NCBI GenBank assembly: GCA_965207115.1
Contig: CBDBLR010000003.1
Coordinates: 2,014 to 66,013, forward strand
Direction of reading: 5' to 3'
DNA from: Dehalococcoidia bacterium
Lineage (GTDB): Bacteria; Chloroflexota; Dehalococcoidia; UBA6926
DNA length: 64,000 bases
Shown here: positions 1,056 to 53,755 of the stretch, piece after piece
Layout of the letters: each line of letters opens with the position of its first letter
How positions within the stretch are numbered: position 1 is the stretch's first letter
Program-made: the position numbers and the translations under genes
The notes under the pieces: generated by a model
Database searches by the model: none
Told to the model about the DNA's origin: nothing
The model's input: the letters and a program-made list of their open reading frames with translations, nothing else

Positions 1056-2093
1056 ATGAGACTTGCAGCACAGTCCAAGGGGGGCTACTACCCCACGCCC
1101 GACCGGGTGGTGGACCTGATCGCGGGGCTGATCGACGCGCCCTACGGCTACCACCACCGCAACCAGGAGACGCTGCGCATCCTCGACCCCTGCTGCGGGG
1201 CCGGGGACGCGCTGGCGCAACTGGCGGGGGAGTTCCGCTACCGGGCCTCCCTCCCCGTGGAGACCTACGGCGTGGAGCTTCACCGGGACAGGGCGGAGGA
1301 GGCGCGGAAGAGGCTGGACCACACCTTGGCCGCAGACCTGTTCGCCACCTCCATCGCCAACGGGGTCTTTGGCCTCGCCCTAGTGAATCCTCCCTACGAT
1401 CACGACTCGGAGGACAAGCGCGTCGAACATGCCTTTTTGACCCACTGCACGCGCTACTTGGCCGAGGGTGGGCTGCTGGTGTTCATTGTGCCCCGGCAGA
1501 GGCTATCGGTCTCGGCCCGCTACCTATCCACCCACTATCGGAACCTCAACTGCTGGGCCTTCCCCGTCCCCGAGCGTGAGGTCTTCGACCAGGTGGTCTT
1601 GCTGGGCTACCGCAAGGCAGACCCTGTGCCCGACGCCCACGCCGAGGAGCAGGTGAGGGCGTGGGCCGAGGGAGAGCCGGAGCCTTTGGGCCGGGTGCGC
1701 TACCCCGCCTTCAGGGCGACGGCGACCCCGGCGGGGGACATCCTCTTCACCACCCGCACCGTGGACCCCGTCGCTGCGGCGACCGAGGCCAGGCGGTCGG
1801 GACTGTGGACCAGCACGGCGATCACGGACACCTTGTGGCCCGCACAGGACAACCGCACCCGGCCGCTGATGCCCCTGCGACGCGGCCACATGGCGATGCT
1901 GGTGGCGGCGGGCTTCCTCGACAACCTCGTCCTCGAATCCGAGGGACAGCGCATCCTAGTCAAGGGCAAGACTTCCAAGGAGATGGTGATGGTCGAGGAC
2001 ACCCCGGAGAAGGAGGTCTACCGCGAGCGGCTCAAGACCACCGTCGTCTCCCTGGACCTGGGCGACGGCGAGATCGTCGAGATAGCCGCGTAG
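1056..2093 (+). CDS. gamma-class N6-adenine (amino) DNA methyltransferase, 345 aa
   Basis: Motif X GGYYPTP, motif I DPCCGAGDAL, motif IV LVNPPYD in order X-I-IV with C-terminal TRD. RBS AAAGGAGAG upstream of ATG. Confidence 0.8.
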   Translation: MRLAAQSKGGYYPTPDRVVDLIAGLIDAPYGYHHRNQETLRILDPCCGAGDALAQLAGEFRYRASLPVETYGVELHRDRAEEARKRLDHTLAADLFATSIANGVFGLALVNPPYDHDSEDKRVEHAFLTHCTRYLAEGGLLVFIVPRQRLSVSARYLSTHYRNLNCWAFPVPEREVFDQVVLLGYRKADPVPDAHAEEQVRAWAEGEPEPLGRVRYPAFRATATPAGDILFTTRTVDPVAAATEARRSGLWTSTAITDTLWPAQDNRTRPLMPLRRGHMAMLVAAGFLDNLVLESEGQRILVKGKTSKEMVMVEDTPEKEVYRERLKTTVVSLDLGDGEIVEIAA

Positions 2094-2217
2094 ACGGCTG
2101 CACCCGCAGCCGCGGCAACGAGGCCCCGCTCTGTCCCGCGATGGGACGGCGGGGCCTCGCCTCGTTTCGGAAGCAACGCAACATACCTCTATATATAAGG
2201 AAAGGAATGAGAGAACC

Positions 2218-2427
2218 ATGCAAGCAACCATGACGCTAAAAGCCTGCTGCCGGTGCGGGCAGCCCATCGCCCCCGGCGAACCGGCCATGCAGACCGCCTC
2301 GGTGGACATCGACGATTACGGACGAGTGGTCTCCTCGCCGGTGAAGTCCTACCACCTGAGCGGGCGCTGCTACGAGGACGCCAGGGCCGCCGAAGCCGCC
2401 CGCAGAAAGGCGTTGCTCGCCGCTTAG
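2218..2427 (+). CDS. small zinc-ribbon protein (69 aa)
   Basis: Strong RBS AAGGAAAGGA before ATG. CCRCG...SGRCY Cys pairs. Sits between MTase and helicase. Confidence 0.45.
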   Translation: MQATMTLKACCRCGQPIAPGEPAMQTASVDIDDYGRVVSSPVKSYHLSGRCYEDARAAEAARRKALLAA

Positions 2428-2543
2428 ACGGCTCGCCATCGAGCCGCACATCCAACGAGGCCCCTGCGCCTCGCCAAGCCTGCCCCGTACTCGATACGGG
2501 GTCATCGGACACGCCCACAACCTACATAAGGAAGGAGAACGAC

Positions 2544-4916
2544 ATGAACCTCGGAGAGTTCATCGACACGTACAAGGAGGCCATCGCCCAGCGGGTGGTG
2601 GAGTCCTACCCGCCGCTCTACCGGCCCTCGGAGAACGGCGGCACGCTCCCTCGCCTGCTCCGCTCCCCCCTGGGGGCGCAGGGGGACGCCATAAGGGGCG
2701 CGGCCCTCTCCCTCGAAGCCCACCGGGGAACGACGGTGGTGGGCGAAATGGGCACGGGCAAGACCTTTATCGGCGCGGCGGCGGCGCACATGGCGGGTTT
2801 CCAGCGCATCCTGGTGCTCTGCCCGCCCCACCTGGTTCCTAAGTGGAAGCGGGAGGTGGAGAAGACGGTGCCCGGCGCCCGCGCCGCCATCGTCACCTCC
2901 ATCACCGACCTGGAGCAGCTCCGCTTCTCCATCGGCTCAGGCCCCCTGTTCGCCGTGATGTCGAGAGAACGGGCGAAATTGTCCTACCGCTGGCAGGCCG
3001 CCGTCACCTACCGGTGGGCCACGTCGAGGGGAAGGCTCATCAGGGACGAGGAGACGGGAGAGCCCTTCCGGGTCCCCTGCTGCCCCGACTGCACGGCGCA
3101 GATCACGGACAAGGATGGCGTGCCGCTGACGGATGCCGACCTGAATCGCCGCAAGCACACCTGCCCCGACTGCGGCATTCCCCTGTGGCAGGCCGACAAC
3201 TCCGGCCCCAAGCGCTACCCGCTTGCGGACTACGTGAAGCACCACATGGGGGGCTTCTTCGACCTGCTGGTAACTGATGAGGTCCACGAGTACAAGGGGC
3301 GCGGCTCGGCCCAGGGCATCGCTGCCGGTGTCCTTGCAGACGCCTGCGGGAAGTCCCTCTCCCTGAGCGGCACCCTCATGGGCGGGTACAGCTCCACGCT
3401 GTTCCATCTCCTCTACAGGTTCAGCCCGGAGATTCGGTCGGAGTTCGGGCGCTCCGAGGAGGGGCGCTGGATCGAGCGGTACGGCTTCGTCGAGCACTCA
3501 ATCGGCAAGCCCGACGACGAGTCGATGGAGGACGGGCGCAACAGCAGGCGCAAGAAGTTCCGTAAGGTGGTCCGGGAGAGGCCGGGGCTTGCCCCATCAG
3601 CCCTCTTCCACCTCATCGGCAACACCGTCTTCCTCCGTCTCACCGACGTGGCGTCGGGGCTGCCGGACTACACCGAGCAGATACTCCTGTCCTCGATGGA
3701 CTCGGAGAAGGACCACACGGGCTACTCCCAGCGCAGCGCCTACGACACCGTGTTCGAGGAACTGCGCAAGGAGCTGGCGGAGGCCCTCAAGAGCGGCTCC
3801 AAGAGGCTGCTGGCTACGTACTTGCAGACGTTGTTGGCCTACCCGGACGGGTGCACCAAAGGGGAGACGGTCTTCGACCCCAGGTCGGGCGACGTCATCG
3901 TGCAGGTGCCGCCCCTGTCCGAGGAGAAGCTCTACCCGAAGGAGCAGGCGCTCATCGATCTGGTGGCCGCCGAGCGGATGGAGGGACGCAGGGTGCTGGT
4001 CTACGTCACCCACACGGGGACCCGGGACATCACCGGGCGCATGGACGACATCCTCACCCGGCACGGCTTCCGGGTGGCGGTGATGAAGGCCGACGCCGTG
4101 GCCCCCGACAAGAGGGAGAAGTGGGTCGCCGACAGGGTGAAGCAGGGCATCGACGTCCTCATCTGCCACCCCAGGCTGGTACAAACCGGACTCGACCTCA
4201 TCGACTTCCCGACAATAGTTTGGGATGAGATAGATTACAGCGTGTACGTGATGAGGCAGGCATCACGTCGGTCGTGGCGCATCGGGCAGACCCGCCCGGT
4301 GAAGGTGGTGTACATGAGCTACCGCAACACCCTACAGGCCGACGCCCTCAAGCTGGTGGCGAAGAAGCTGCAAAGCTCGCTAGCGGTGGAAGGCGAGCTG
4401 CCGGAGGACGGGCTGGCCGCCTTTGGGGACGACGGGGACGACATGATGATGGCCCTGGCCCGCAAGATCGTCAGTGGAGACGAGGAAGAGAACGAGGCCG
4501 AGACGGTGGAGGAGGTCTTCGCCCAGGCGCGGAACGCCGAGGCCACCGCCGAGGAGCTGCTGGTGGACGACGGCTGGAAGGTCGTCGAAGTGGAGCCGGA
4601 GACCGTCGCGGTCAACGGCAACGGCCACCATGTCAACGGCAATGGTCACGACGACCTGTTCGGCATCGGGCCGACGGTGGAGCTGGTTCCGGCCAACGGG
4701 CACGCGCCCGCCAACGGGGCCAACCGGAACGGTCACCACGACGAGGCCGAGGAGCCGCAGGAGACGCTGTTCTCCTGGGCGGAGTTCATGGCCGAGGAGC
4801 CGGTGAAGCCGAAGCGCCGAGGTCGCAAGCCTCAGACCGCAACCATGTCCATGTTCGAGTGGGCACTCAGCCTTGAGCAGGAGCGAGAGGGGGAGCTGGT
4901 CGGCGCGGGACGTTAG
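2544..4916 (+). CDS. SNF2-family (SF2) helicase with inserted zinc ribbon and low-complexity Asn/Gly/His acidic tail, 790 aa
   Basis: Walker A GEMGTGKT, motif II LLVTDEVHEYKG, motif III SGTLMGG, motif VI QASRRSWRIGQTRP. CCPDC...CPDCG Zn ribbon between motifs I and II. ATG 2544 preceded by AAGGAAGGAG; the track's GTG-2253 extension lacks RBS support. Confidence 0.85.
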   Translation: MNLGEFIDTYKEAIAQRVVESYPPLYRPSENGGTLPRLLRSPLGAQGDAIRGAALSLEAHRGTTVVGEMGTGKTFIGAAAAHMAGFQRILVLCPPHLVPKWKREVEKTVPGARAAIVTSITDLEQLRFSIGSGPLFAVMSRERAKLSYRWQAAVTYRWATSRGRLIRDEETGEPFRVPCCPDCTAQITDKDGVPLTDADLNRRKHTCPDCGIPLWQADNSGPKRYPLADYVKHHMGGFFDLLVTDEVHEYKGRGSAQGIAAGVLADACGKSLSLSGTLMGGYSSTLFHLLYRFSPEIRSEFGRSEEGRWIERYGFVEHSIGKPDDESMEDGRNSRRKKFRKVVRERPGLAPSALFHLIGNTVFLRLTDVASGLPDYTEQILLSSMDSEKDHTGYSQRSAYDTVFEELRKELAEALKSGSKRLLATYLQTLLAYPDGCTKGETVFDPRSGDVIVQVPPLSEEKLYPKEQALIDLVAAERMEGRRVLVYVTHTGTRDITGRMDDILTRHGFRVAVMKADAVAPDKREKWVADRVKQGIDVLICHPRLVQTGLDLIDFPTIVWDEIDYSVYVMRQASRRSWRIGQTRPVKVVYMSYRNTLQADALKLVAKKLQSSLAVEGELPEDGLAAFGDDGDDMMMALARKIVSGDEEENEAETVEEVFAQARNAEATAEELLVDDGWKVVEVEPETVAVNGNGHHVNGNGHDDLFGIGPTVELVPANGHAPANGANRNGHHDEAEEPQETLFSWAEFMAEEPVKPKRRGRKPQTATMSMFEWALSLEQEREGELVGAGR

Positions 4917-5046
4917 GCCGCAAGGCACAGGGGGAGGACGACGCCGCATCGTGGCGTCCTCCCCCTGCTCGCCGATGTGTGTGGACTTTTTGTGTTTCTG
5001 AGGAAGCGCTTCCCTCGTTCACGGCCATGTGTGTTGGCCTTTTTGT

Positions 5047-5076
5047 TTGTCTCGAAGCCGCCGGTAATCGTATAAT
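5047..5076 (+). promoter_or_regulatory. near-consensus sigma70-type promoter (TTGTCT-18 nt-TATAAT)
   Basis: -35-like TTGTCT 5047-5052, 18-nt spacer, perfect TATAAT 5071-5076, about 40 nt upstream of ATG 5116. Confidence 0.5.
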
Positions 5077-5115
5077 GTCAGATAGTGTGCGTTCCTAGTA
5101 CGCAAAGAGGTGAGC

Positions 5116-5379
5116 ATGACAACACGCCCCCGCGACGAGACGGCCCGCATCGGGAAAGAGATATATGAGAGGGACATTCGCCATCTTGTCGAGGCGGACC
5201 ACCATGGGGATGTCGTCGCCATCGACATCGGCAGCGGATGCTATGCCCTCGGCAAGAATGCCATTGACGCGTCCGAAGGACTGCGGGACCAACACCCGGG
5301 CGCCCAAGTCTGGCTGATGCGGGTCGGACACCGGACGCTGTATCGCTTCGGAGGCAACTCTCTTCGGGGAGCCGGGTGA
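5116..5379 (+). CDS. small hypothetical protein (87 aa), upstream partner of retropepsin-like protease
   Basis: SD GAGGTGA before ATG 5116. Stop TGA overlaps the next start (ATGA coupling). Confidence 0.5.
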   Translation: MTTRPRDETARIGKEIYERDIRHLVEADHHGDVVAIDIGSGCYALGKNAIDASEGLRDQHPGAQVWLMRVGHRTLYRFGGNSLRGAG

Positions 5380-5750
5380 TGGAGGGTGTCGTCAACGGCC
5401 GTCTCGAAGCCATCATAACAGTTTTCCTGCTAGGCTCTGCGGGGCATGCGAGAGAAATCGACGCCGTGGTTGACACCGGCTTCAACGGCTTTCTGACCCT
5501 GCCACCGATGCTGGTAGCTGACTTGGCGCTGCCTGTCGTAGGTGAGGGCGAAGCGGTCCTCGCCGATGGCAGCGAGGCTGTCTTTGACGTGCATAGCGTC
5601 ACGGTGCTCTGGGATGGTCAACCGAGAGCCGTAGAGACTGGGGCGGTTGGCGGGGACCCGTTGGTGGGAATGGCTCTCATGGAAGACCACGACTTGAGAA
5701 TTCGAGTGTGCAACGGCGGGCGAGTGCTTATAGAGGCTACGTCACAGTAA
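5379..5750 (+). CDS. retropepsin-like (clan AA) aspartic protease, standalone about 120-aa type
   Basis: Catalytic motif VVDTGFNGFLTLP (D-T/S-G) and size match bacterial/archaeal single-domain retropepsin-like proteases. Start overlaps upstream stop. Confidence 0.7.
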   Translation: MEGVVNGRLEAIITVFLLGSAGHAREIDAVVDTGFNGFLTLPPMLVADLALPVVGEGEAVLADGSEAVFDVHSVTVLWDGQPRAVETGAVGGDPLVGMALMEDHDLRIRVCNGGRVLIEATSQ

Positions 5751-6032
5751 GACTGCCGCACATGGGTCGCTTCGAACGCCCCCAAGTCCACTTCTCATAG
5801 ACTGACATTTTCATTGAACAGGTAGACCCTGACAGAATCATTGAACAACAACAACTAGCCTCCGTTCATCTTGACATCTCCGTCCAGATTGGCGGATACT
5901 CTACGCTGGTTTCATGTGACTTGCGTTGATTACAGCTAGAAAATATAGCGATCCAGCGCCCGCACCGCGTCGTGGCATAGGCCGGGCGACCAGGGAGGTT
6001 TGACGACATGACTAACCTGCTGAGGAGCTCTA

Positions 6033-6045
6033 CCCCCCCCCCCCC
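6033..6045 (+). repeat. homopolymeric C13 tract in 5' leader of giant surface-protein gene
   Basis: 13 consecutive C read directly; ends 14 nt before ATG 6060. Confidence 0.85.
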
Positions 6046-6059
6046 GATTTTCGTGGGGA

Positions 6060-9000
6060 ATGCCTGTCGTGAGACGCCCGGCAAGGACCTTCCTCGCCTT
6101 GATGCTGGCTGTGGCGGCGTTGTTTGCGCTGCTGGTCGGCGGGACTGAGAACGCCTCCGCCCAACAACAGTCGCAGGCGCTGGTCAGCAACATTGGTCAG
6201 TCCGACAGCGGGCGGGGCGCATGGGGCAACGACTATGCCCAGGCGTTTACCACAGGCAGCGAGAGCACGGGCTACACGCTGAACAGCGTCGATATCGAGA
6301 TCGCGGGGATCAACGATTTCTCTGCTCTTTCTTCGAAACTAACGGTCACCATCCGCAGCGGTTCCGGCATTACTCCGGGTGCGGTGGTCGGCACCCTGAC
6401 GAATCCCTCCAACCGGATCTTCACCTCGGACCAAACGCTCAACTTCGCTGCGCCCGGGGCGGGCATTGACCTGGCGGCGGACACCAAGTACTGGGTCATG
6501 GTCGACGTGACCGGGAACATTTCGGGCCAGACCAATAGCGACGGCCTGCGCAACACGGCATCGGACGCCGAAGACTCCGGCGCCGCGGCCAGCTGGAGCA
6601 TTGCCGACGACAGCCGGCACCGGACCCGGACCTCAACCGGCGCCTGGACCACCTCTACCGAATCCATGAAAATCCGGATCGTCGGCGGCGTGAAGCCGCC
6701 GCTCATCAGCAACCTCGGTCAGGCGGACACCGGCGGCACGGGGTTGAATATCGACCAGGCCCAAGCGTTCACCACAGGTGGCAACGGCGGGGGTTACACG
6801 CTAACCAGCGCCGATTTGGTAATCGGCCTGAACAACGATTCTGCTCTCTCATCGAAACTGACGGCCACCATCCAGAGCCCGCTGGGCACGGTCATCGGCA
6901 CTCTGACGACTCCCGCCATCCCAACGACGAACTCGAATCAAACGGTCAACTTCGCCGCGCCCGGGGATGGCATCGACCTGGCGGCGAACACCACATACTG
7001 GTTGGTGTTCGACAGTACAGGAGTCTCAACGGGTGATGCTAGTACCGGAGCTACCCCATCGTCCGCCGAGGACTCCGGCGGCGCGGACGGCTTCAGCATC
7101 GCCAACGACAGATGGTACCGGTTCCAGAGCGATACTTCTTGGACTCAGATCGGCGGCAGCGCGCTGAAAATCCGCATCATCGGCGGCGTGAAGCTGCTTA
7201 CAGTGAACGCCGACGGCAGCTACACGGTGCCCGAGGACTGGGCGCTGCTCCCGGCGGGCTTCGGGCCTGGGGACCGGTTCCGGCTGATGTTCATGACGCA
7301 GGGTATGGAAAGTGCGCTTCGAAGCGACATCGGGTTCTACGACACGTATGTGCAAGGCGAGGCGGAGAGCGGGCACGGCGCCATCCGGCCGTATGCGGAG
7401 CTGTTCAAGGTGGTGGGCTCGACCTCGGCGGTGGACGCCCGTGACCACCTGGACATGAACCCGAGCAGCGACGGCGCGGGCCATCCCGTCTACTGGCTGC
7501 GCGGCCCCCGCATCGCGGATGACACCGCCGAGTTCTGGTCGGACAACTGGCAGAACTGGACGATTGCCAACCGCCGCAACGCGAACGGGAACGAGATGAC
7601 CGGCAGTGCGAGAGGCGACTGGCACTGGACCGGCACGCGAGCGGACGGGAGGGGGCACGCCTCCTTGCATCTGGGGAGCAACGACCGGGTTATGCGGGGC
7701 CGGTTCCTGAACTTCACCTCCGACCGGAACCCGCTCGACCACACCGGAACGCCCCGGGGCCAGGACCACTCCTTCTACGCCATGTCGCCGGTGTTCGTCG
7801 TGGATGGCCTCACCTATCTGGACCCTGGCAGCAACCCCCAGACTGGGAAACTCGTCGAAATCGACAAGACCCGCTTCAAGGTGGACGAGCCCGCCAGCTG
7901 CGGGGTGAACGAGGGCCGCAAGCAGAACGAGCGTGATAGTGATAGAGAGGGTAAGTGGGAGTCAACCATCGCGGACGACACGACGTACTCGTACAACGTG
8001 CGGCTGTTGCGGGACCCGGCGCTCGACCCGAAGATCGACACGGTGAAGGTTGAAGTGGTGGGCGGCAGCCCGCCCGACTGGTGGACGGCGCACCGGGCAG
8101 GGTTTGTGACGGTGGAGGACAAGGCTCCGGATATTGAGCCCAAGCAGGTCCTGCATTTCGATTCGTCCAACTGGGACCAGTGGCAGAACGTCCAGCTGCG
8201 GATTCACTGCGCGGACCACTTCCACTTCGGCGATGTCACCTGGCGGCAGTTCCGGCACGTCAGCTACACAAACAACAAGAGAAGGGATGGTAGGACTTTC
8301 CTGCAGAACGAAGAGCCGGTGGTGAAGGTGAAGGTGTTCGACAACCGGATACCGGCGTTGATGGACAGCTACAGCCACGAACTGAGCATGCAGGCGGAGA
8401 CCAACGAGTACGGCCGCCGTGGGGTTGAGACCGAGGTCATCAACTACGTGTACTGGCAGTGGAAGTTGCCCGGCGTCACGGGCAACGTGGACAGCGATGC
8501 GGACAAGCACTTCTCCCACTGGCATCTGCGGCTGCTCGCGGACAATAGTGTTGGTGGCAATGCACCGGACTGGGTCAAGAACGTCTCGACCGACGAGGGG
8601 TACTCCTTCAATCCGGACGGCAGATACAAGGCTGGGATGCGGATGCGGGGTCTGCCGACCAAGACGCCGTTCACCGCGCCTCCGAACAAGCAGTACCGGC
8701 TCGACATCACTCCGGTGACCCTGCGGGAAGAGATGGCGGAGGGCGCGAAGCTGACCGTCTGCATAGAGATGCGGGACGTGCGTCCAGACTGGGACACCCC
8801 CAACTGGCGGGCGTACTACATCCCCTGCACGCCGGCGCTGAATGCCCTGAGCCCCCAGCAGATGGCCCCGCCGGTGACCCCGACAGTGTTCATCGCGGGG
8901 GCCGGGGGCGGAGATGAAGGGCAGGGCTCCGTCTTCTTCATCAACACGAACCCCAAGCCCAGGTCCCCGCTGAAGGTGAATGTGGAGGTCACGGCCACGG

Positions 9001-12000
9001 GCGACTACGGGGTGACGACGGGGACGCGGACCATCACGATCCCGACCACGGGCCTCTACGACCTGAACATCGCCACCGTGGACGACGAGGTGGACGAGGA
9101 CGACGGCACGGTGACCCTCACCCTGCGGGATGGCGACGGCTACATCGTCGGCCCGGGGAACACGGAGACCACCGACGTCTTCGACAACGACCTGCCGCTG
9201 GCGCCGGCCATAGTCACGCCCGCGGTGAACGTCACGGGGGCCTCCGGCGGGAACGAGGGCGAGGACGCCGTCTTCACCCTGGAGGCGAGCCCCAAGACGG
9301 ACGCCGCCCTGGACGTGAACATAGAAGTCACGGCCACGGGCAGCTACGGGGTGAAGCCGGGCAAGCGGACGGTGACGATACCGGCCTCGGGCAGCCTGAG
9401 GCTGACCATCCCCACCAGGAATGATGGCACGGACGAACCCGACGGCACGGTGACCGTGACCCTGCAGGCCGGGGACGGCTACGAGATCGGGGCGCAGGCC
9501 TCGCAGAGCGCGGACATATTGGACAACGACCTGCCACCGGTGCAGGTCACAGTCGCCGACGCCATAGCGCAGGAGGGCGACGACCTGGAGTTCGTGATCA
9601 GCCTGGACCGCGCGGCGGACCACCAGGTCATCGTGCACTACGTCACGCTGGACTGGGATGCCTGGCATCCGGACGACTACGCCCAGGCCCTCGGCCACGT
9701 GACGTTCGCGCCGGGCGAGACGCAGCAGACGGTGCGCGTCCCGACAGTGGTTGACAACCGGGACGAATGGGGCCATGAGGAGGGGCAGGAGCGAATGCTC
9801 TTCCAGGTGACGGGCGTCGAAGGCGGCGAGGACGGCGACGATGATACCATCGGGATCATCAGCGACGACCCGGTGGACACCACGCCGAAGCCGGAGCTGA
9901 GCATCAGCGGAGGCAGCGGGATCACCGAGGGCGGCACGGCCACCTTCACCATCACCGCGAGCTTTGCGCCGGAAGACCCCATCACCGTCAAGGTGGGGGT
10001 GTCCCAGGGCGGGGACTTCGGCGTCTCGACCGGCACCAAGACGGTGACGGTGAGCGGCACGTCGACGACCTACACCGTCACGACTACAGACGACAGCGCC
10101 GACGAGCCGGACGGCTCGGTGACGGCGACGCTGCAAAGCGGCAGCGGCTACACCGTGTCTTCCTCGAATGGAGCGGCGTCGGTGTCCGTGGCCGACGACG
10201 ACCTGCCGCCGCCGGTGGCGAGCATCACCGGAGGCAATGGGATCACCGAGGGCGGCACTGCCAGCTTCACCATCACGGTCAACCCGGCCCCAACCAGTCC
10301 AATCACGGTCAAGGTGGGGGTCTCCCAGAGCGGGAACTTCGGCGTCAGCACCGGGACCAAGACGGTGACGGTGAGCGGCGGGACGGCGACCTACACCGTG
10401 ACTACCATCAATGACAACGCCGACGAGCCCGACGGCTCGGTGACGGCGACGCTGCAAAGCGGCAGCGGCTACACCGTGTCCTCCTCTAATGGAGCGGCCA
10501 CGGTGGCCGTGGCCGACGACGACGTCACGCCTGAGGTGAACGTCACCAGCGCGGCCAGCGGACCGGAGGGTCAGGACGTCACCTTCACGCTGACGGCCAA
10601 CCCGGCCCCGGGGGCCAACCTGCCGGTGAGCGTCACGGTGACCGGCAGCGGCGACTACGGCGTCTCCACGGGAACCTGGGTCGAGACCATCCCGACCGGC
10701 GGGAGCGTCGTCGTGACGCTCACCACCACGGACGACTCGACCGACGAGCCCAACGGGTCGGTGACGCTGACGGTGAACGGCGGCCAGGGCTACACCGTGG
10801 GGTCCCTGTCCAGTGAGACGGTGACGGTGACCGACAACGACGAACCACGGCAGCCACTACTGCTGCCGGACCCCGAGGTGAGCATCACCGCAGGGAGCGG
10901 GATCATCGAGGGCGGCACTGCGACCTTCACCATCACCGCCAACCCGGCGCCAAGCAGCCCCATCACGGTCAACGTGGGGGTCAGCGAGAACGGCGACTTC
11001 GGTGCCAGCGGCGCGGCCACGGTCACGGTGAGCGGCGCGAGCACGACCTACACCGTGACAACGACCAACGACAACGCCGACGAGGCCGACGGGTCGGTGA
11101 CGGCGACGCTGCAAACGGGCAGCGGCTACACCGTGTCCTCATCGCAGGGGGCGGCCTCCGTGGCCGTGTCCGACGACGACGTGCCCGAGGTGAGCATCAC
11201 CGCAGGCAGCGGGATCACCGAGGGCGGCACGGCCAGCTTCACCATCACGGCCAGCCCGGCCCCGGCCAGCCCCATCACGGTCAAGGTGGGGGTCAGCGAG
11301 AACGGAGACTTCGGGGCCAGCGGGTCGGCCACGGTGACGGTGAGCGGCGCGAGCACGACCTATACCGTGACCACCATCAATGACAACGCCGACGAGGCCG
11401 ACGGGTCGGTGACGGCGACGCTGCAATCGGGCAGCGGCTACACCGTGTCCTCATCGCAGGGGGCGGCGACGGTTGCCGTGTCGGACGACGACGTGCCCGA
11501 GGTGAGCATCGCCGCAGGGAGTGGGATCACCGAGGGAGGCACGGCCAGCTTCACCATCACGGCCAACCCTGCCCCGGCCAGCCCCATCACGGTCAAGGTC
11601 GCAGTAAGCGAGAACGGCGACTTCGGGGCCAGCGGGTCGGCCACGGTGACGGTGAGCGGCGCGAGCACGACCTACACCGTGACCACCACCAATGACAACG
11701 CCGACGAGGCCGACGGCTCGGTGACGGCGACGCTGCAATCGGGCAGCGGCTACACGGTGTCCTCCTCACAGGGGGAGGCTACCGTTGCGGTGTCGGACGA
11801 CGACGTGCCGACCGACGGCAACAGCGACACCCTGACGGTGTCCGTCGCGGATTCGGAGAGCGCAGGTCCGGGAGAGTTCCTCAAGTTCACGGTCTCGGCC
11901 AGCGAGACCGCCCAGCAGGATGTCACCGTCACGTTCACCGTGAGCAACATCGGCGGCTTGATTCAAGGCTTGGACTACTGCATCCTGCCCTCGGATGAGG

Positions 12001-12224
12001 AGCCCGACGCCAACTTCCGGTGCATGTTCCTCCCCTATGAGCATGACAACGAGGGAGGCCAGGTGACCATCGCCGCGGGCGAGGACAGCGCGACGGTCTA
12101 CATCTGGATCGACCGGGACGCCCGGGTGCCCTCCGGCCAGCCGCGGATCTTCGTCGATCTCACCGAGGTGGAGGGAGCGAAGGAGATTACCGATGGACTT
12201 GGAGAGGGCCGGGTCGAAAGATAA
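6060..12224 (+). CDS. giant secreted surface protein (2054 aa): signal peptide, two N-terminal ~175-aa repeat domains, central globular region, ~10 Calx-beta-like tandem domains
   Basis: N-terminus MPVVRRPARTFLALMLAVAALFALLVGGTENASA-QQQ (signal peptide, AxA cleavage). Repeats of ~100 aa ending ...TVTIxDNDxP / ...VAVSDDDVPEV, typical of Calx-beta. High DNA identity between repeats. Confidence 0.85.
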   Translation: MPVVRRPARTFLALMLAVAALFALLVGGTENASAQQQSQALVSNIGQSDSGRGAWGNDYAQAFTTGSESTGYTLNSVDIEIAGINDFSALSSKLTVTIRSGSGITPGAVVGTLTNPSNRIFTSDQTLNFAAPGAGIDLAADTKYWVMVDVTGNISGQTNSDGLRNTASDAEDSGAAASWSIADDSRHRTRTSTGAWTTSTESMKIRIVGGVKPPLISNLGQADTGGTGLNIDQAQAFTTGGNGGGYTLTSADLVIGLNNDSALSSKLTATIQSPLGTVIGTLTTPAIPTTNSNQTVNFAAPGDGIDLAANTTYWLVFDSTGVSTGDASTGATPSSAEDSGGADGFSIANDRWYRFQSDTSWTQIGGSALKIRIIGGVKLLTVNADGSYTVPEDWALLPAGFGPGDRFRLMFMTQGMESALRSDIGFYDTYVQGEAESGHGAIRPYAELFKVVGSTSAVDARDHLDMNPSSDGAGHPVYWLRGPRIADDTAEFWSDNWQNWTIANRRNANGNEMTGSARGDWHWTGTRADGRGHASLHLGSNDRVMRGRFLNFTSDRNPLDHTGTPRGQDHSFYAMSPVFVVDGLTYLDPGSNPQTGKLVEIDKTRFKVDEPASCGVNEGRKQNERDSDREGKWESTIADDTTYSYNVRLLRDPALDPKIDTVKVEVVGGSPPDWWTAHRAGFVTVEDKAPDIEPKQVLHFDSSNWDQWQNVQLRIHCADHFHFGDVTWRQFRHVSYTNNKRRDGRTFLQNEEPVVKVKVFDNRIPALMDSYSHELSMQAETNEYGRRGVETEVINYVYWQWKLPGVTGNVDSDADKHFSHWHLRLLADNSVGGNAPDWVKNVSTDEGYSFNPDGRYKAGMRMRGLPTKTPFTAPPNKQYRLDITPVTLREEMAEGAKLTVCIEMRDVRPDWDTPNWRAYYIPCTPALNALSPQQMAPPVTPTVFIAGAGGGDEGQGSVFFINTNPKPRSPLKVNVEVTATGDYGVTTGTRTITIPTTGLYDLNIATVDDEVDEDDGTVTLTLRDGDGYIVGPGNTETTDVFDNDLPLAPAIVTPAVNVTGASGGNEGEDAVFTLEASPKTDAALDVNIEVTATGSYGVKPGKRTVTIPASGSLRLTIPTRNDGTDEPDGTVTVTLQAGDGYEIGAQASQSADILDNDLPPVQVTVADAIAQEGDDLEFVISLDRAADHQVIVHYVTLDWDAWHPDDYAQALGHVTFAPGETQQTVRVPTVVDNRDEWGHEEGQERMLFQVTGVEGGEDGDDDTIGIISDDPVDTTPKPELSISGGSGITEGGTATFTITASFAPEDPITVKVGVSQGGDFGVSTGTKTVTVSGTSTTYTVTTTDDSADEPDGSVTATLQSGSGYTVSSSNGAASVSVADDDLPPPVASITGGNGITEGGTASFTITVNPAPTSPITVKVGVSQSGNFGVSTGTKTVTVSGGTATYTVTTINDNADEPDGSVTATLQSGSGYTVSSSNGAATVAVADDDVTPEVNVTSAASGPEGQDVTFTLTANPAPGANLPVSVTVTGSGDYGVSTGTWVETIPTGGSVVVTLTTTDDSTDEPNGSVTLTVNGGQGYTVGSLSSETVTVTDNDEPRQPLLLPDPEVSITAGSGIIEGGTATFTITANPAPSSPITVNVGVSENGDFGASGAATVTVSGASTTYTVTTTNDNADEADGSVTATLQTGSGYTVSSSQGAASVAVSDDDVPEVSITAGSGITEGGTASFTITASPAPASPITVKVGVSENGDFGASGSATVTVSGASTTYTVTTINDNADEADGSVTATLQSGSGYTVSSSQGAATVAVSDDDVPEVSIAAGSGITEGGTASFTITANPAPASPITVKVAVSENGDFGASGSATVTVSGASTTYTVTTTNDNADEADGSVTATLQSGSGYTVSSSQGEATVAVSDDDVPTDGNSDTLTVSVADSESAGPGEFLKFTVSASETAQQDVTVTFTVSNIGGLIQGLDYCILPSDEEPDANFRCMFLPYEHDNEGGQVTIAAGEDSATVYIWIDRDARVPSGQPRIFVDLTEVEGAKEITDGLGEGRVER
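10872..11807 (+). repeat. three near-identical 312-bp (104-aa) in-frame tandem repeats inside giant gene
   Basis: Unit begins CCCGAGGTGAGCATCACCGCAGG at 10872, 11184 and 11496. Minus-strand shadow ORFs also recur with a 312-nt offset. Confidence 0.9.
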
Positions 12225-30379: not shown

Positions 30380-30590
30380 CGTCATTCCCCCGAAAGCATG
30401 CCCCGTACTCCGATACGGGGCGGGAATCCAGAACACCCTCTCCCAATCTGCGAGTACGATAGGCGTCCCACCCTTGAAGGGTCAAGAACAAAACACCCCC
30501 GTTCGCCCTGAGCCTGTCGAAGGGCCACCACGCCCGTCATTCCCGGCCCCCCCCGTCATTCCCGCGCAGGCGAGAACCTGAATCACAATG
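30380..30590. repeat. composite REP-like element (A with nested 20-nt palindrome, B, A')
   Basis: CGTCATTCCC…CCCCGTACTCCGATACGGGG…CGGGAATCCAG; GTTCGCCCTGAGCCTGTCGAAGGG; CGTCATTCCCGGCC…GTCATTCCCGCGCAGGCG. Confidence 0.75.
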
Positions 30591-40209: not shown

Positions 40210-42090
40210 GTGGACACCACAGACACCCCCAACCCCGACGAGCCGCAGCGCCCCGTCACACGGCGCGGCATCGCCCGACCGCCGCGCACCCGCCGCGCCT
40301 CAGCCGCCGCAACGACGGAAGCACCCCCGGAGGAAAACTCCGCCGAGGAAGCCGTGACCGAAAACGGCGCGACCCCCGCCGCTCACCCTGAACCTGTCGA
40401 AGGGACCACCGAAAACGGCGCAACTCCGGTCGAAACTGCGGACAACGGCACGACCCCCGCCGAAGCGCCCACGGAAAACGGCGCAGCCGCTCCGGATGCC
40501 CCCTCCCCATCACCGAGGAGGAGTCGAAGTGCGAGTGAAGCCTCCTCCATCACGGACGGCCTTCCACCCGCCACCATGACTACCACCACCGCGGAACCCA
40601 TTGAAGACATCGAAGAAGAAGCGCCACCCCGACGCGCGCCACGCCCACGTCCCTCCAACGGTGCAGGGCAGCGGCGACGCGAGCGACCGGACCGCGGTGA
40701 CCGCCCTAACCGGGCGCCCCGCGATGGCGGCGGCCCACGCCCACCTGCCAACGCTGACGACGGTGATTCTGACTCCCAACAGCGTGAGCCGCGTGTTTCT
40801 GACCTGCCGGAGCCGCTTCAGCAGGTCACCATCCCGCAGCTTGAGGCCCTTGATCGTGACGAGGCCGGCCGCCTCGCTGAATTCCTCAACATGCCCCCCG
40901 GCGCCGCCGTCCGACGTGATGAGATGGTCCATCGCGCCATCCAGACCCTCGGCGAGCGCGGCGGAACAATCACCGCCAGCGGCATCCTTGAGATCACCAA
41001 CGACGGCTACGGCTTCATCCGACACCGCACCCTCCGCCACAACATCAACGATGTCTACGTCGCGCAGTCGCAGATCCGCCGATTCAGCCTTCGCACCGGT
41101 GATTGGGTAACAGGGCAGGTCCGCTCACCCAAGAGCGGGGAGAAATACTACGGCCTCCTCCGCGTTGACACCGTCACCGGCCAGGAGCCGGAGATCTCTC
41201 GCCGCCGCCCCGTCTTTGACCAACTCACAGCACTCTTCCCGGATCGACTCTATGACCTGGAGACGAATCAAAAGGCCATCGCCGCCCGCCTGCTCAACCT
41301 CGTCGCCCCCATCGGCTTCGGACAGCGAGCCTTGATCGTCTCCCCCCCCAAGGCCGGCAAGACCATCCTTCTCCACCAGATCGCAGACGCCATCACCTCC
41401 CAGTACCCCTCCACCCACATCATGGCCGCCCTCATCGGTGAGCGACCGGAAGAAGTCACGGACTGGGAGCGCACCGTTAAAGGTGCAGAAGTCATGGCCT
41501 CCACCTTTGACGAGCCCGTTGAAGAACACACCCGCGTTGCAGAGCTCGTCCTCGCCCGCGCCAAGAGACTCGTTGAAGCCGGGCAAGACGTCGTCATCCT
41601 CCTTGACTCCATCACTCGACTCGCCCGCGCCTACAACATCGCCGCCCCTTCCAGTGGGCGCACACTCTCCGGCGGCATGGATCCCGTCGCCCTCTACCCC
41701 CCCAAGCACTTCTTCGGCGCAGCGCGCAACACAGAAGAGTCCGGCACCCTCACCATCGTCGCCACCTGCCTTGTCGACACCGGCTCCCGGCTTGACGATG
41801 TCATCTACGAAGAATTCAAAGGCACCGGCAACATGGAGGTCCACCTCGATCGCAAACTCGCCGAGCGCCGCATCTACCCCGCCATTGACGTCCTCAAGTC
41901 CGGCACACGACGTGACGAGCGACTCTACGACGAAAAGTCCTACCGCGGCATCGTCACCCTCCGCCGCATGATGGCCATGCTCTCCAACTCCAACCTTGAC
42001 GCATCCGATGCCACAGAGCGCATCCTTGACCGCATCTCAAAGACCAAGACCAACGCCGACTTTATCGCCACACTCTCCCGTGAAATCTAA
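40210..42090 (+). CDS. rho: transcription termination factor Rho with ~200-aa disordered N-terminal extension (GTG start)
   Basis: RNA-binding (…GDWVTGQVR…) and ATPase motifs (…PKAGKTILL…, Q- and R-loops); SD AAAGGAG 6 nt before GTG. Confidence 0.9.
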
Positions 42091-42095
42091 ACACC

Positions 42096-42206
42096 CGTTC
42101 ACCCTGAGCCTGTCGAAGGGCCCGCGTCATTCCCTATTCCCCTCCGTCATTCCCGCGAAAGCGGGAATCCAGAATCCCCCCCGTTCACCCTGAGCCTGTC
42201 GAAGGG
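42096..42206. repeat. composite REP-like element (B-A-B) immediately after rho stop
   Basis: CGTTCACCCTGAGCCTGTCGAAGGG x2 flanking CCGTCATTCCCGCGAAAGCGGGAATCCAG (8-bp stem, GAAA loop). Confidence 0.8.
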
Positions 42207-47332: not shown

Positions 47333-47350
47333 CCTCCCCCACAACCCCCC

Positions 47351-47400
47351 CCCGTCATTCCCGCCCCCCTCCGTCATTCCCGTGAAAACGGGAATCCAGT
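47351..47400. repeat. REP-like element type A (right flank of GIY-YIG gene), near-identical to 46921-46975
   Basis: CCGTCATTCCCGCCCCCCTCCGTCATTCCCGTGAAAACGGGAATCCAG, followed by a GCCGCCC-GCA-GGGCGGC hairpin. Confidence 0.8.
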
Positions 47401-52804: not shown

Positions 52805-53755
52805 CTACAACCGCGACACACCTACCAGCGTCGCGTTCACAATGAAACGGTGTGAATACGTCGTTGCCGGCGCGCACGTCACCAACGACAATGTTGGCTT
52901 GTCCGAGTAATCGAATACATCTACGTCCTCTGGCAAAACGACCGTCGTATCCGTGGCACGGTACAGGAATACGTCCCCCCCCGCCGTGACATAAATGTCC
53001 ACAATCTCGCCGCGCCGCAGAAGGGGCGCAATTTCATCCAAGCGCGCGAAGATTGATCCCTCACCCGCGAATGGTGAATTCACGTGACCGGACATGACCG
53101 AATTGCCGATCTCGCCAGGTGTTGCGGAACCGACGTGGAAACCCACAGCATGGTCGGCCGTCTCCCACGCAGTTGTCTCACCGTCCCAAACGATGCTGAG
53201 GTCCACAACATTCGATTCCAATTCGATAGCGGGAATGCGGATGTGCGCCGGCCGTGGCTGCTCGCCATACGTCTGAACGAGATCGTCTTCCGTGACTAAC
53301 TTGTAATTGTCCCTAATTGGTCCCACGTACGCGCCATTGTCTGCCCGGGACACATAGTGGCTGAAATCGCGGAGGATACCGTACTCGTCATAGAGTCCAC
53401 TTTCGTCCGCCTCGCTTGTCAGGGGATTATCGCTGTCGGCACGTGACTCCGGTGTTTCCGTCGCCGGCGCACTGCCGGGCCCGGAGACGGTTGCCGCCAC
53501 CGTTGGAGTTGACGTGGGTAGAGGAGCAACAGTGGGCTTCGGCGTTGGCAGACCACGAGACAGATCCTCCTGCGTGAGGCCAGTCTCGGCCTGCGTCACC
53601 CTCAAATCATCGAGGTCTGCCTCTGAATACGCCCCAAGAGAGAAATATCCGACCGAAAACAACACCAACAAGACTCCAATGGCTGCCACCAGGACACCCA
53701 GCACTAATAGGGGGCGAACGAAGATAAGCGCCCAGAGTCCGATGAAACGATCCAT
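52805..53755 (-). CDS. sortase-family transpeptidase (membrane-anchored)
   Basis: N-terminal TM helix; catalytic His (…SGHVNSPF…), TLSLVTC (TLxTC) Cys motif, downstream Arg. Confidence 0.7.
   Translation of the reverse strand: MDRFIGLWALIFVRPLLVLGVLVAAIGVLLVLFSVGYFSLGAYSEADLDDLRVTQAETGLTQEDLSRGLPTPKPTVAPLPTSTPTVAATVSGPGSAPATETPESRADSDNPLTSEADESGLYDEYGILRDFSHYVSRADNGAYVGPIRDNYKLVTEDDLVQTYGEQPRPAHIRIPAIELESNVVDLSIVWDGETTAWETADHAVGFHVGSATPGEIGNSVMSGHVNSPFAGEGSIFARLDEIAPLLRRGEIVDIYVTAGGDVFLYRATDTTVVLPEDVDVFDYSDKPTLSLVTCAPATTYSHRFIVNATLVGVSRL

Follow-up and report, generated by a model that had tools for sequence, protein, structure and literature searches.

Does a run of 13 cytosines (C13) in front of a giant gene of an uncultured bacterium act as a switch for the protein that the gene encodes, and would such a switch act on the promoter or on translation? 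The question is raised by a 64,000-nt stretch of DNA from a Dehalococcoidia bacterium (GenBank assembly GCA_965207115.1, contig CBDBLR010000003.1, positions 2,014 to 66,013), hereafter called the window, in which the C tract lies between an upstream ATG at position 6008 and the beginning of an open reading frame (ORF) of 2054 amino acids (aa). A first, sequence-only reading of the window had taken the tract for a slipped-strand phase-variation switch of a giant adhesin gene. The comparative evidence presented here, namely length polymorphism, conserved flanks, and the occurrence of all three reading frames, supports that interpretation, and we consider that the C tract is probably a contingency locus of the slipped-strand type, located inside a translated 5′ leader.

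The poly-C tract and the geometry of the two starts

It was found, by reading of the sequence and by script, that the tract consists of exactly 13 C, and that no other homopolymer in the 64-kb window exceeds a length of 9; shorter C runs of the C7 to C9 range are located, for example, at 41342 to 41349 and 52975 to 52982. The number of C13 runs expected by chance, as evaluated with dinucleotide-preserving shuffles, was 0.01 per window. Taking a length of about 7 to 8 or more as the criterion for slippage of a G/C homopolymer, the repeat is long enough to slip.

As shown in Table 1, a Shine-Dalgarno (SD) sequence precedes ATG 6008, and the frame opened by this ATG crosses the tract as proline codons. 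The distance between ATG 6008 and ATG 6060, the first ATG in the frame of the giant ORF, is 52 nt, and therefore these two codons are in different frames, as had been stated from the sequence. The length of the resulting leader ORF had been given as 51 codons, which did not agree with our count (Table 1).

Loss of one C (C12) was computed to fuse ATG 6008 to the giant ORF, yielding the product MTNLLRSSTPPPRFSWGMPVVRRPARTF..., and the gain of two (C15) gave, by script, the same fusion with one extra proline, MTNLLRSSTPPP(P)RFSWGMPVVRRP.... With C14 or C11, the leader ORF is terminated by a TGA that shares bases with GTG 6069. The window allele, C13, is in the overrun state, in which the leader ORF continues past this GTG, and it is a single slippage step away from C12 (fused) or C14 (stop at GTGA).

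Table 1. Positions of the C tract, the translation starts, and associated features in the window.
Feature	Position	Strand	Description
Promoter-like site, TTGACA-18 nt-GATACT	5871–5900	+	10 of 12 matches; putative function
SD sequence, GGGAGG	5993–5998	+	9-nt spacer to ATG 6008
Upstream start, ATG	6008–6010	+	Start of the leader ORF
Leader ORF at C13	6008–6148	+	MTNLLRSSTPPPPIFVGNACRETPGKDLPRLDAGCGGVVCAAGRRD and stop; 46 codons, stop at 6146–6148; overruns the internal start by 77 nt
C13 tract	6033–6045	+	25 nt past the SD-ATG, 23 nt ahead of the conserved internal start
G-run, GGGG	6055–6058	+	Weak SD-like element, 10 nt ahead of GTG 6069
ATG	6060–6062	+	First main-frame ATG; present in L001, absent from the second L002 gene and the other class-1 loci
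Internal start, GTGA	6069–6072	+	Conserved; overlaps the +1-frame TGA stop
Giant ORF	6060–12224	+	2054 aa, counted from ATG 6060
Predicted fusion peptides of an in-frame allele			MTNLLRSSTPPPR and the fusion-specific FSWGMPVVR
Predicted mature N terminus past the signal peptide			QQQSQALVSNIGQSDSGR

Tract length among related loci

A contingency locus is predicted to vary in length among relatives, and variable lengths were found. Unrelated sequence at this position was not seen in the six closest homologues, all of which share the leader of the window or have a related one. The tracts of these six are C13, C12, C20, C9, C23, and C16; the last five belong, in this order, to P0002 (locus L001, 89% identity to the window protein), P0003 (L069, 88%), P0004 (L071, 81%), P0005 (L002, 87%), and P0006 (L070, 73%). 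The first of these proteins, which comes from another assembly, is the C12 fusion that had been predicted from the window: its promoter-like site, SD, ATG, and linker are the same as in the window, and it encodes MTNLLRSSTPPPRFSWGM..., with the N terminus MTNLLRSSTPPPRFSWGMLVMRRP. Loci L001, L069, L070, and L071 are all part of ENA analysis ERZ25069711. The contig that carries P0005 also contains a second giant Calx-beta gene, which has a C22 tract (L002, 9911 to 9932); the linker that follows this tract is as in the window (GATTTTCGTGGGGAATCCCTGTC-ATGAGG), and the sequence before it is different.

The family table comprised 39 tract-bearing 5′ regions, the window included, and locus flanks supplied further 5′ ends. 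All tract lengths were taken from consensus assemblies, and the comparison is one between loci. The tracts ranged from C6 to C23, and 37 of the 39 were pure and long. Long runs tend to decay, yet nearly all of these have not, which suggests selection on mutability.

Two classes of leader were distinguished. Class 1, with 14 loci including the window and tracts of C9 to C23, has the leader ..GAGGTTnGACGACATGAC.., in which the ATG precedes the tract by 25 nt, and outside the window it was found in metagenome-assembled genomes (MAGs) of Dehalococcoidia/Chloroflexota. Class 2, with 17 loci and tracts of C8 to C16, has the arrangement ..CCTACCCCTTTCAG-Cn-GACTTCCGGGGGCGTC(G/A)TGCTGACCCGG, with the ATG 76 nt before the tract. 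Within class 2, there were 67 pairs of loci with 120 of 120 identical flanking bases, and the tract length differed in 62 of these pairs; for example, L031 and L033 have identical flanks and tracts of C10 and C16, respectively. Therefore, the tract mutates far faster than its surroundings, and this apparent difference in rate is the signature of a contingency locus. Within class 1, the SD-ATG block GAGGTTnGACGACATGAC was invariant in 14 of 14 leaders and was the most conserved part of the leader; among the leader codons (8), about 4 of 8 changes were synonymous (ACT/ACC, GAC/GAT, AGG/CGG, and AGC/AGT).

The same variation was visible in the N termini of called proteins. In 35 homologues, a short leader is followed by PPP to PPPPPP, a short linker, and a signal peptide, as in MTNALRSFTPPP(P)RISWGFSLMRRPARTF..., and 86 other homologues have 12 or fewer residues ahead of the hydrophobic core, most of them starting directly with the signal peptide (for example, MRRPARTF...). 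Within clusters of proteins at 90% identity, the N termini differed by leader state alone, namely MRRPWTALL.. versus MTKDRENIS..FYPPPRISWGFSLMRRPWTALL versus a PPPPPP version. A protein search with the 66-aa fused N terminus returned one short fragment only (P0177, MTDALRSFTPPRFSWAGAVMRRP..), and a single JGI metagenome scan with the leader DNA pattern gave one unrelated match (L068), the organisms evidently not being in those data.

Members from the Acidimicrobiales have the arrangement in other forms. The L052 version consists of an SD-ATG, 5 codons, C11, and a GTGAGG start. At L045 (Acidimicrobiaceae MAG contig JAPPMP010000051.1, about 1330 to 1420), a (CT) repeat of about 20 units was found at the position of the poly-C tract, with three CATCTCTCTCAAGC copies before it and GGTTCTGGGGTTTGTCC and a GTGAGG start after it. 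Interrupted or decayed tracts were also seen, namely C8TC7 in L050 and C6 in L011, and some proteins read ..TPFPRF.. or ..PTPP...

Distribution of frame states

The frame state of each locus was scored relative to the canonical upstream ATG. In class 1, the leader ORF was fused in 5 alleles, ended at the start-overlapping xTGA in 4 of the 14, and overran the start by 77 to 152 nt in 5, including the window. In class 2, 6 were fused, 5 of the 17 stopped at +4 relative to the start, and 6 overran it. The three states therefore each account for about one-third of the loci. Single genomes contain 4 to 5 paralogues each, in unlike states: L014, L017, L043, and L048 in OZ242258.1, and L019, L021, L024, L047, and L042 in CBDBMT01.

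This even spread over the frames fits free switching, and it rules out a sequencing error of ±1 as the source of the variation. The possibility that the tract is a constrained poly-proline coding stretch was rejected because the lengths fall into all residues modulo 3 and are not multiples of three.

In class 2, two upstream frames open into the tract, one as MVAELMAKTLKTLGKAGNASYLPLSA- and the other as MGNLGQ..RQRFIPTPFS-. Where the MGNLGQ start is intact (L012 and L013), two of the three tract frames can yield an N-terminally extended fusion; most other class-2 loci have an upstream ATG in one frame only.

Position of the tract relative to the promoter-like site

The window and its relatives share conserved DNA from the −35 box of the promoter-like site, which is the exact boundary, through the leader, and the sequences further upstream are unrelated. 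This site was the only sigma-70-like match between positions 5600 and 6300 (mean of 0.2 in shuffles), and it was aligned and conserved in L001, L002, L010, L031, L033, and L069. A switch that acts by changing the spacing of a promoter, of the type of Bordetella fim, Neisseria porA/opc, and Mycoplasma vlp, was considered and rejected because this sole promoter-like site precedes the tract by 133 nt and the tract follows a conserved SD-ATG. Within the presumed transcript, the SD-ATG would come first and the tract after it, at about 130 nt, and therefore a translational switch is indicated instead. A search of positions 5700 to 6300 against Rfam gave no match at E ≤ 1.

The internal start and the G-run

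The sequence-only reading had placed the start of the giant protein at ATG 6060 and had noted that GGGGA abuts this codon. The abutting GGGGA (6055 to 6059) was as described, but the conserved start in the main frame proved to be GTG 6069, which aligns with the M-R-R-P start of all relatives (ATG, GTG, or TTG, then AGG/AGA-CGC). In class-1 loci, this internal start is always 23 nt beyond the end of the tract. It was observed that the second codon of the signal peptide is invariably AGG or AGA and the third CGC or CGT (6069 to 6074 in the window, all class-1 loci, L045, L050, and L052), AGG and AGA being rare arginine codons for a genome of 61% GC. With AGG or AGA in second place, a +1-frame TGA arises that shares bases with the start codon (ATGA, GTGA, or TTGA), and this overlap was present at the conserved start of every class-1 locus.

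The main-frame N terminus, MPVVRRPARTFLALMLAVAALFALLVGGTENASA followed by QQ, resembles, as read by eye, a Sec signal peptide with an AxA site (..TENASA before QQ) that extends to about position 6161. The public protein P0001, which is 100% identical and 2040 aa long, begins at ATG 6102, within the signal peptide, so that the n-region is cut off, and many members of the family in databases have been called from varied starts according to the frame of the tract.

The G-run in front of the internal start is the positional equivalent of the AGGAGG or AGGGGG that is located 9 nt before GTGAGAC in homologues that have no tract (L054 to L065), and in the predicted folds of the window, L031, and L014, the last 4 to 6 C of the tract pair with this G-run. 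These two observations, together with a distance from tract to start that is fixed at 23 or 16 nt, would agree with an RNA structural element, in which the C run serves as an anti-SD sequence that pairs with GGGG and damps the internal start, the variation in length being neutral. We regard this explanation as unlikely. The folds were no more stable than those of shuffles (z from −0.3 to −1.1, and +1.1 for L014), L069 has C20 and the same leader without the G-run, and L045 has (CT)n in place of poly-C. Furthermore, 5 to 6 C would suffice for pairing, yet the tracts are 8 to 23 long and pure, and this explanation would not account for the conserved SD-ATG that precedes the tract by 25 nt.

Proposed mechanism and its rivals

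A contingency locus that acts on translation of the leader could function in the following way. Transcription would start slightly downstream of TTGACA/GATACT, at about 5907, and ribosomes, recruited by the strong GGGAGG-9 nt-ATG 6008 signal, would translate the tract into prolines, with the outcome set by the tract length modulo 3. In the in-frame state (C12, C15, and so on), the leader would be joined to the signal peptide, and synthesis of the giant protein would begin at the strong start, which would be the ON state. In the +1 frame (C14, C11, and so on), translation of the leader would end at the TGA that shares bases with the internal start (GTGA in the window, and ATGA or TTGA in relatives), with possible termination-reinitiation and a predicted intermediate output. 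In the +2 frame (C13, as in the window), wrong-frame ribosomes would run 77 nt beyond the internal start and cover it, leaving only weak independent initiation at GTG 6069, behind a G-run that is able to pair with the tract; the state would be low or OFF. We propose three states instead of two because every class-1 locus has the xTGA overlap and codon 2 is AGG or AGA throughout. Replication slippage would alter the tract by ±1 at high frequency, and paralogues would switch independently, resulting in a population with mixed surface repertoires. The use of ATG 6008, the effect of each state on expression, and reversibility within a lineage are parts of this mechanism that we infer, and we expect expression of the C13 allele of the window to be low.

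Several points weigh against this mechanism. ATG 6008 may be unused, or the internal start may be adequate in all states. The predicted fused product, with 17 to 45 extra residues including PPP(P) before the signal peptide, is unusual. The synonymous signal in the leader is too small for significance. A long-read consensus can be off by one in long homopolymers (here 13 versus 12 or 14), so that individual state calls, including that of the window, are uncertain, and the OFF call for the window allele is provisional. Heterogeneity within one population and reversibility are predictions, the tract lengths being those of consensus assemblies. A frame distribution of about one-third each is also expected of a neutral, functionless hypermutable tract. 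Lastly, slippage of RNA polymerase on very long C runs may blur a strict ON/OFF distinction.

In its full form, this last point becomes a rheostat, in which RNA polymerase or the ribosome slips on the C run so that each allele gives a mixture of frames and the length of the DNA tract tunes the level. Runs of 13 to 23 identical bases exceed the lengths at which slippage of RNA polymerase on bacterial A/T runs is generally known, and the equal frequency of all frame states in genomes is compatible with no state being fully OFF; however, slippage on C/G runs is reportedly less efficient than on A/T runs. We give the rheostat as a sole explanation a rather low probability, and it is compatible with switching at the DNA level, which the variation between loci shows to be frequent, so that both may coexist.

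An assembly artefact, in which the true allele is C12 (or C15) with an ordinary proline-rich pre-signal extension from ATG 6008 and C13 is a consensus error, is very improbable. The contig names of relatives (ptg..., ctg..._3x_l) do indicate long-read assemblies, some of low coverage, for which the consensus is generally known to be error-prone in runs longer than 10, and in-frame versions are present in relatives. However, the 39 loci are even over the three classes modulo 3 and span lengths of 6 to 23, far beyond an error of ±1; the Illumina-assembled relatives L045 and L050 have the same features, as does L052 (sequencing technology unstated); and L070, a high-coverage circular contig (67x), carries C16 out of frame.

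That the tract is a functionless hypermutable relic, its presence and length being irrelevant because the internal start suffices, agrees with the even frame distribution and with the decayed tracts of some members, but it is hardly credible given that dozens of paralogues, from two leader classes and at least two phyla, have kept a long pure tract in the same place, that poly-C was convergently replaced by another type of repeat in L045, that the SD-ATG feeding into the tract is conserved, and that homopolymers of this length are otherwise rare in the window.

Taken together, these results favor a slipped-strand contingency locus. A much broader proposal, which we offer tentatively and hold to be possible but doubtful, is that sponge-associated bacteria from two or more phyla use a portable 5′ cassette to govern entire families of giant eukaryote-like surface proteins. 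Such a cassette would combine a promoter, a mini-leader that begins with the SD-ATG, a repeat of C or CT, and a stop-overlapped internal start, and it would work as a three-state switch (fusion, termination-reinitiation, and occlusion) in at least 4 to 5 independent copies per genome. The outcome would be combinatorial surface variation, perhaps directed against host phagocytosis or phages.

The giant protein, its family, and its surroundings

The giant protein contains a choice-of-anchor R domain at aa 43 to 209 (NCBIfam NF041539, E 7e-46) and a single Calx-beta domain at aa 1161 to 1248. A tandem module of 312 nt (104 aa) is present six times within the gene, at 9890 to 11809, with 76% matches between copies, and is another potentially length-variable region. 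A sequence search of the PDB with the giant protein found no relative of solved structure, and exact-match look-ups of the giant protein, of P0001, and of a response regulator encoded nearby returned no record. A search for homologues returned 704 proteins, mostly of 2000 to 3100 aa, with fn3 and/or Calx-beta domains. It is a plausible guess that the protein is an adhesin and that it is located at the cell surface.

A genome scan found the N-terminal domain in MAGs labelled Dehalococcoidia/Chloroflexota, Caldilineaceae, and Acidimicrobiales, including Candidatus Poriferisodalis, as well as in MAGs of Nitrospirales, Alpha- and Gammaproteobacteria, and Gemmatimonadetes and in one Synechococcus bin. 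The names of MAGs and the bin labels (Ca. Poriferisodalis, SB06xx, and RHO bins) indicate sponge microbiomes. The copies from Proteobacteria and Nitrospirales lack a repeat tract and have a canonical AGGAGG ahead of the start. The choice-of-anchor R giant family (loci L003 to L067) was present in MAGs of at least six phyla, with 40 to 58% identity in the N-terminal domain, which suggests horizontal spread inside one habitat.

The surroundings of the giant gene are variable and look mobile, and neighbouring genes differ among relatives. Upstream of it in the window (1056 to 5750) are methyltransferase-like and helicase-like genes and a small ORF for a retropepsin-like aspartic protease (5376 to 5750), at the corresponding place in L001 are AbiEi/AbiEii, and transposases were found in L002 and L070; downstream, a gene of the Uma2 family is present in L002, L070, and L071. 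Elsewhere in the window, intergenic C8 and C9 runs (30547 to 30554 and 47345 to 47353) adjoin GTCATTCCCG... elements, of which a full palindromic copy, GTCATTCCCGCGAAAGCGGGAAT, is present at 42146 to 42168; they have the look of a repeat family of the repetitive extragenic palindrome or miniature inverted-repeat transposable element type. The homopolymers of the window are asymmetric between strands, with 29 C-runs of 6 or more on the plus strand and 6 such G-runs, and genes are present on both strands.

Discussion

Repeat-driven phase variation is textbook knowledge in vertebrate pathogens and commensals, and it is usually explained by adaptive immunity. Proteins of the fn3/Calx-beta/choice-of-anchor R class have been proposed repeatedly to function in recognition between symbiont and host. 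The giant protein described here belongs among the eukaryote-like proteins (fn3, Calx-beta, and cadherin) that are enriched in sponge symbionts, fn3 and Calx-beta proteins having been found enriched in sponge-symbiotic Actinobacteriota (PMC11706023). A text match found no mention of phase variation in that paper, and full-text literature searches on phase variation and repeats, within one searchable library, gave no mention of sponges among the top-ranked matches listed (12 to 15 of 111 to 384). Although the mechanism is a known one, it seemingly has not been described for these symbionts, and the setting would be unexpected: uncultured bacteria, apparently associated with sponges, whose genomes each have several putatively switching genes for giant eukaryote-like surface proteins behind a common 5′ cassette.

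If the interpretation is true, an animal without adaptive immunity would host mutualists that have pathogen-style combinatorial surface variation. If the tracts switch, symbiont populations would be mosaics of surface types, surveys of gene presence would overestimate which eukaryote-like proteins are expressed, and gene callers would systematically mis-start or truncate genes of this family, as has already occurred in the public call P0001.

Comparison with known systems

In Mycobacterium tuberculosis, reversible frameshifts in the C-tract of glpK affect protein production (PMC10334774, 10.1101/717272). The likeness is that of a C-run in a GC-rich genome; the tracts of M. tuberculosis, in contrast, are about 7 long and are located in ordinary coding sequence, where they cause loss and restoration of function, and they are not part of a leader cassette or of a multigene family.

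In Bordetella, the tracts of fim2 and fim3 act in the promoter spacer. Long poly-C tracts associated with surface-protein genes of B. pertussis are polymorphic in length among strains (PMC1891110), and the window resembles this system in its long poly-C run, in the GC-rich genome, in the type of gene, and in the polymorphism of length. In contrast to the fim genes, the tract of the window follows the promoter-like site at a distance of about 130 nt and is past an SD-ATG, which would make its action translational.

The closest in mechanism are the poly-G/C tracts in the 5′ coding region of surface and host-interaction genes of Neisseria, Haemophilus, and Campylobacter, such as hmbR/hpuA, nalP, mspA, and pgtA (PMC3786947, PMC3723659, PMC5084427, PMC8355987). 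As in these genera, a G/C homopolymer is located near the 5′ end, changes of ±1 shift the frame, the length is polymorphic, and the flanks are conserved. The tract of the window differs in that it precedes the signal peptide and is placed between a strong upstream start and a conserved internal start; because of this second start, an out-of-frame allele need not be null. Furthermore, the tracts reach C23 here, and the hosts are MAGs of uncultured Chloroflexota and Acidimicrobiia type, known here from sequence alone.

The opa family of Neisseria has CTCTT repeats in the region that codes for the leader peptide, and changes of translational frame can switch its copies independently and in combination. 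Among multigene families it is the closest counterpart to the genes described here, with several paralogues per genome, each having its own repeat before the mature N terminus, and with differing frame states. The family of the window, as seen in its sequences only, differs from opa in having a homopolymer, or (CT)n in L045, instead of a pentamer, and in encoding giant proteins of 2000 to 3100 aa with fn3, Calx-beta, and choice-of-anchor R domains.

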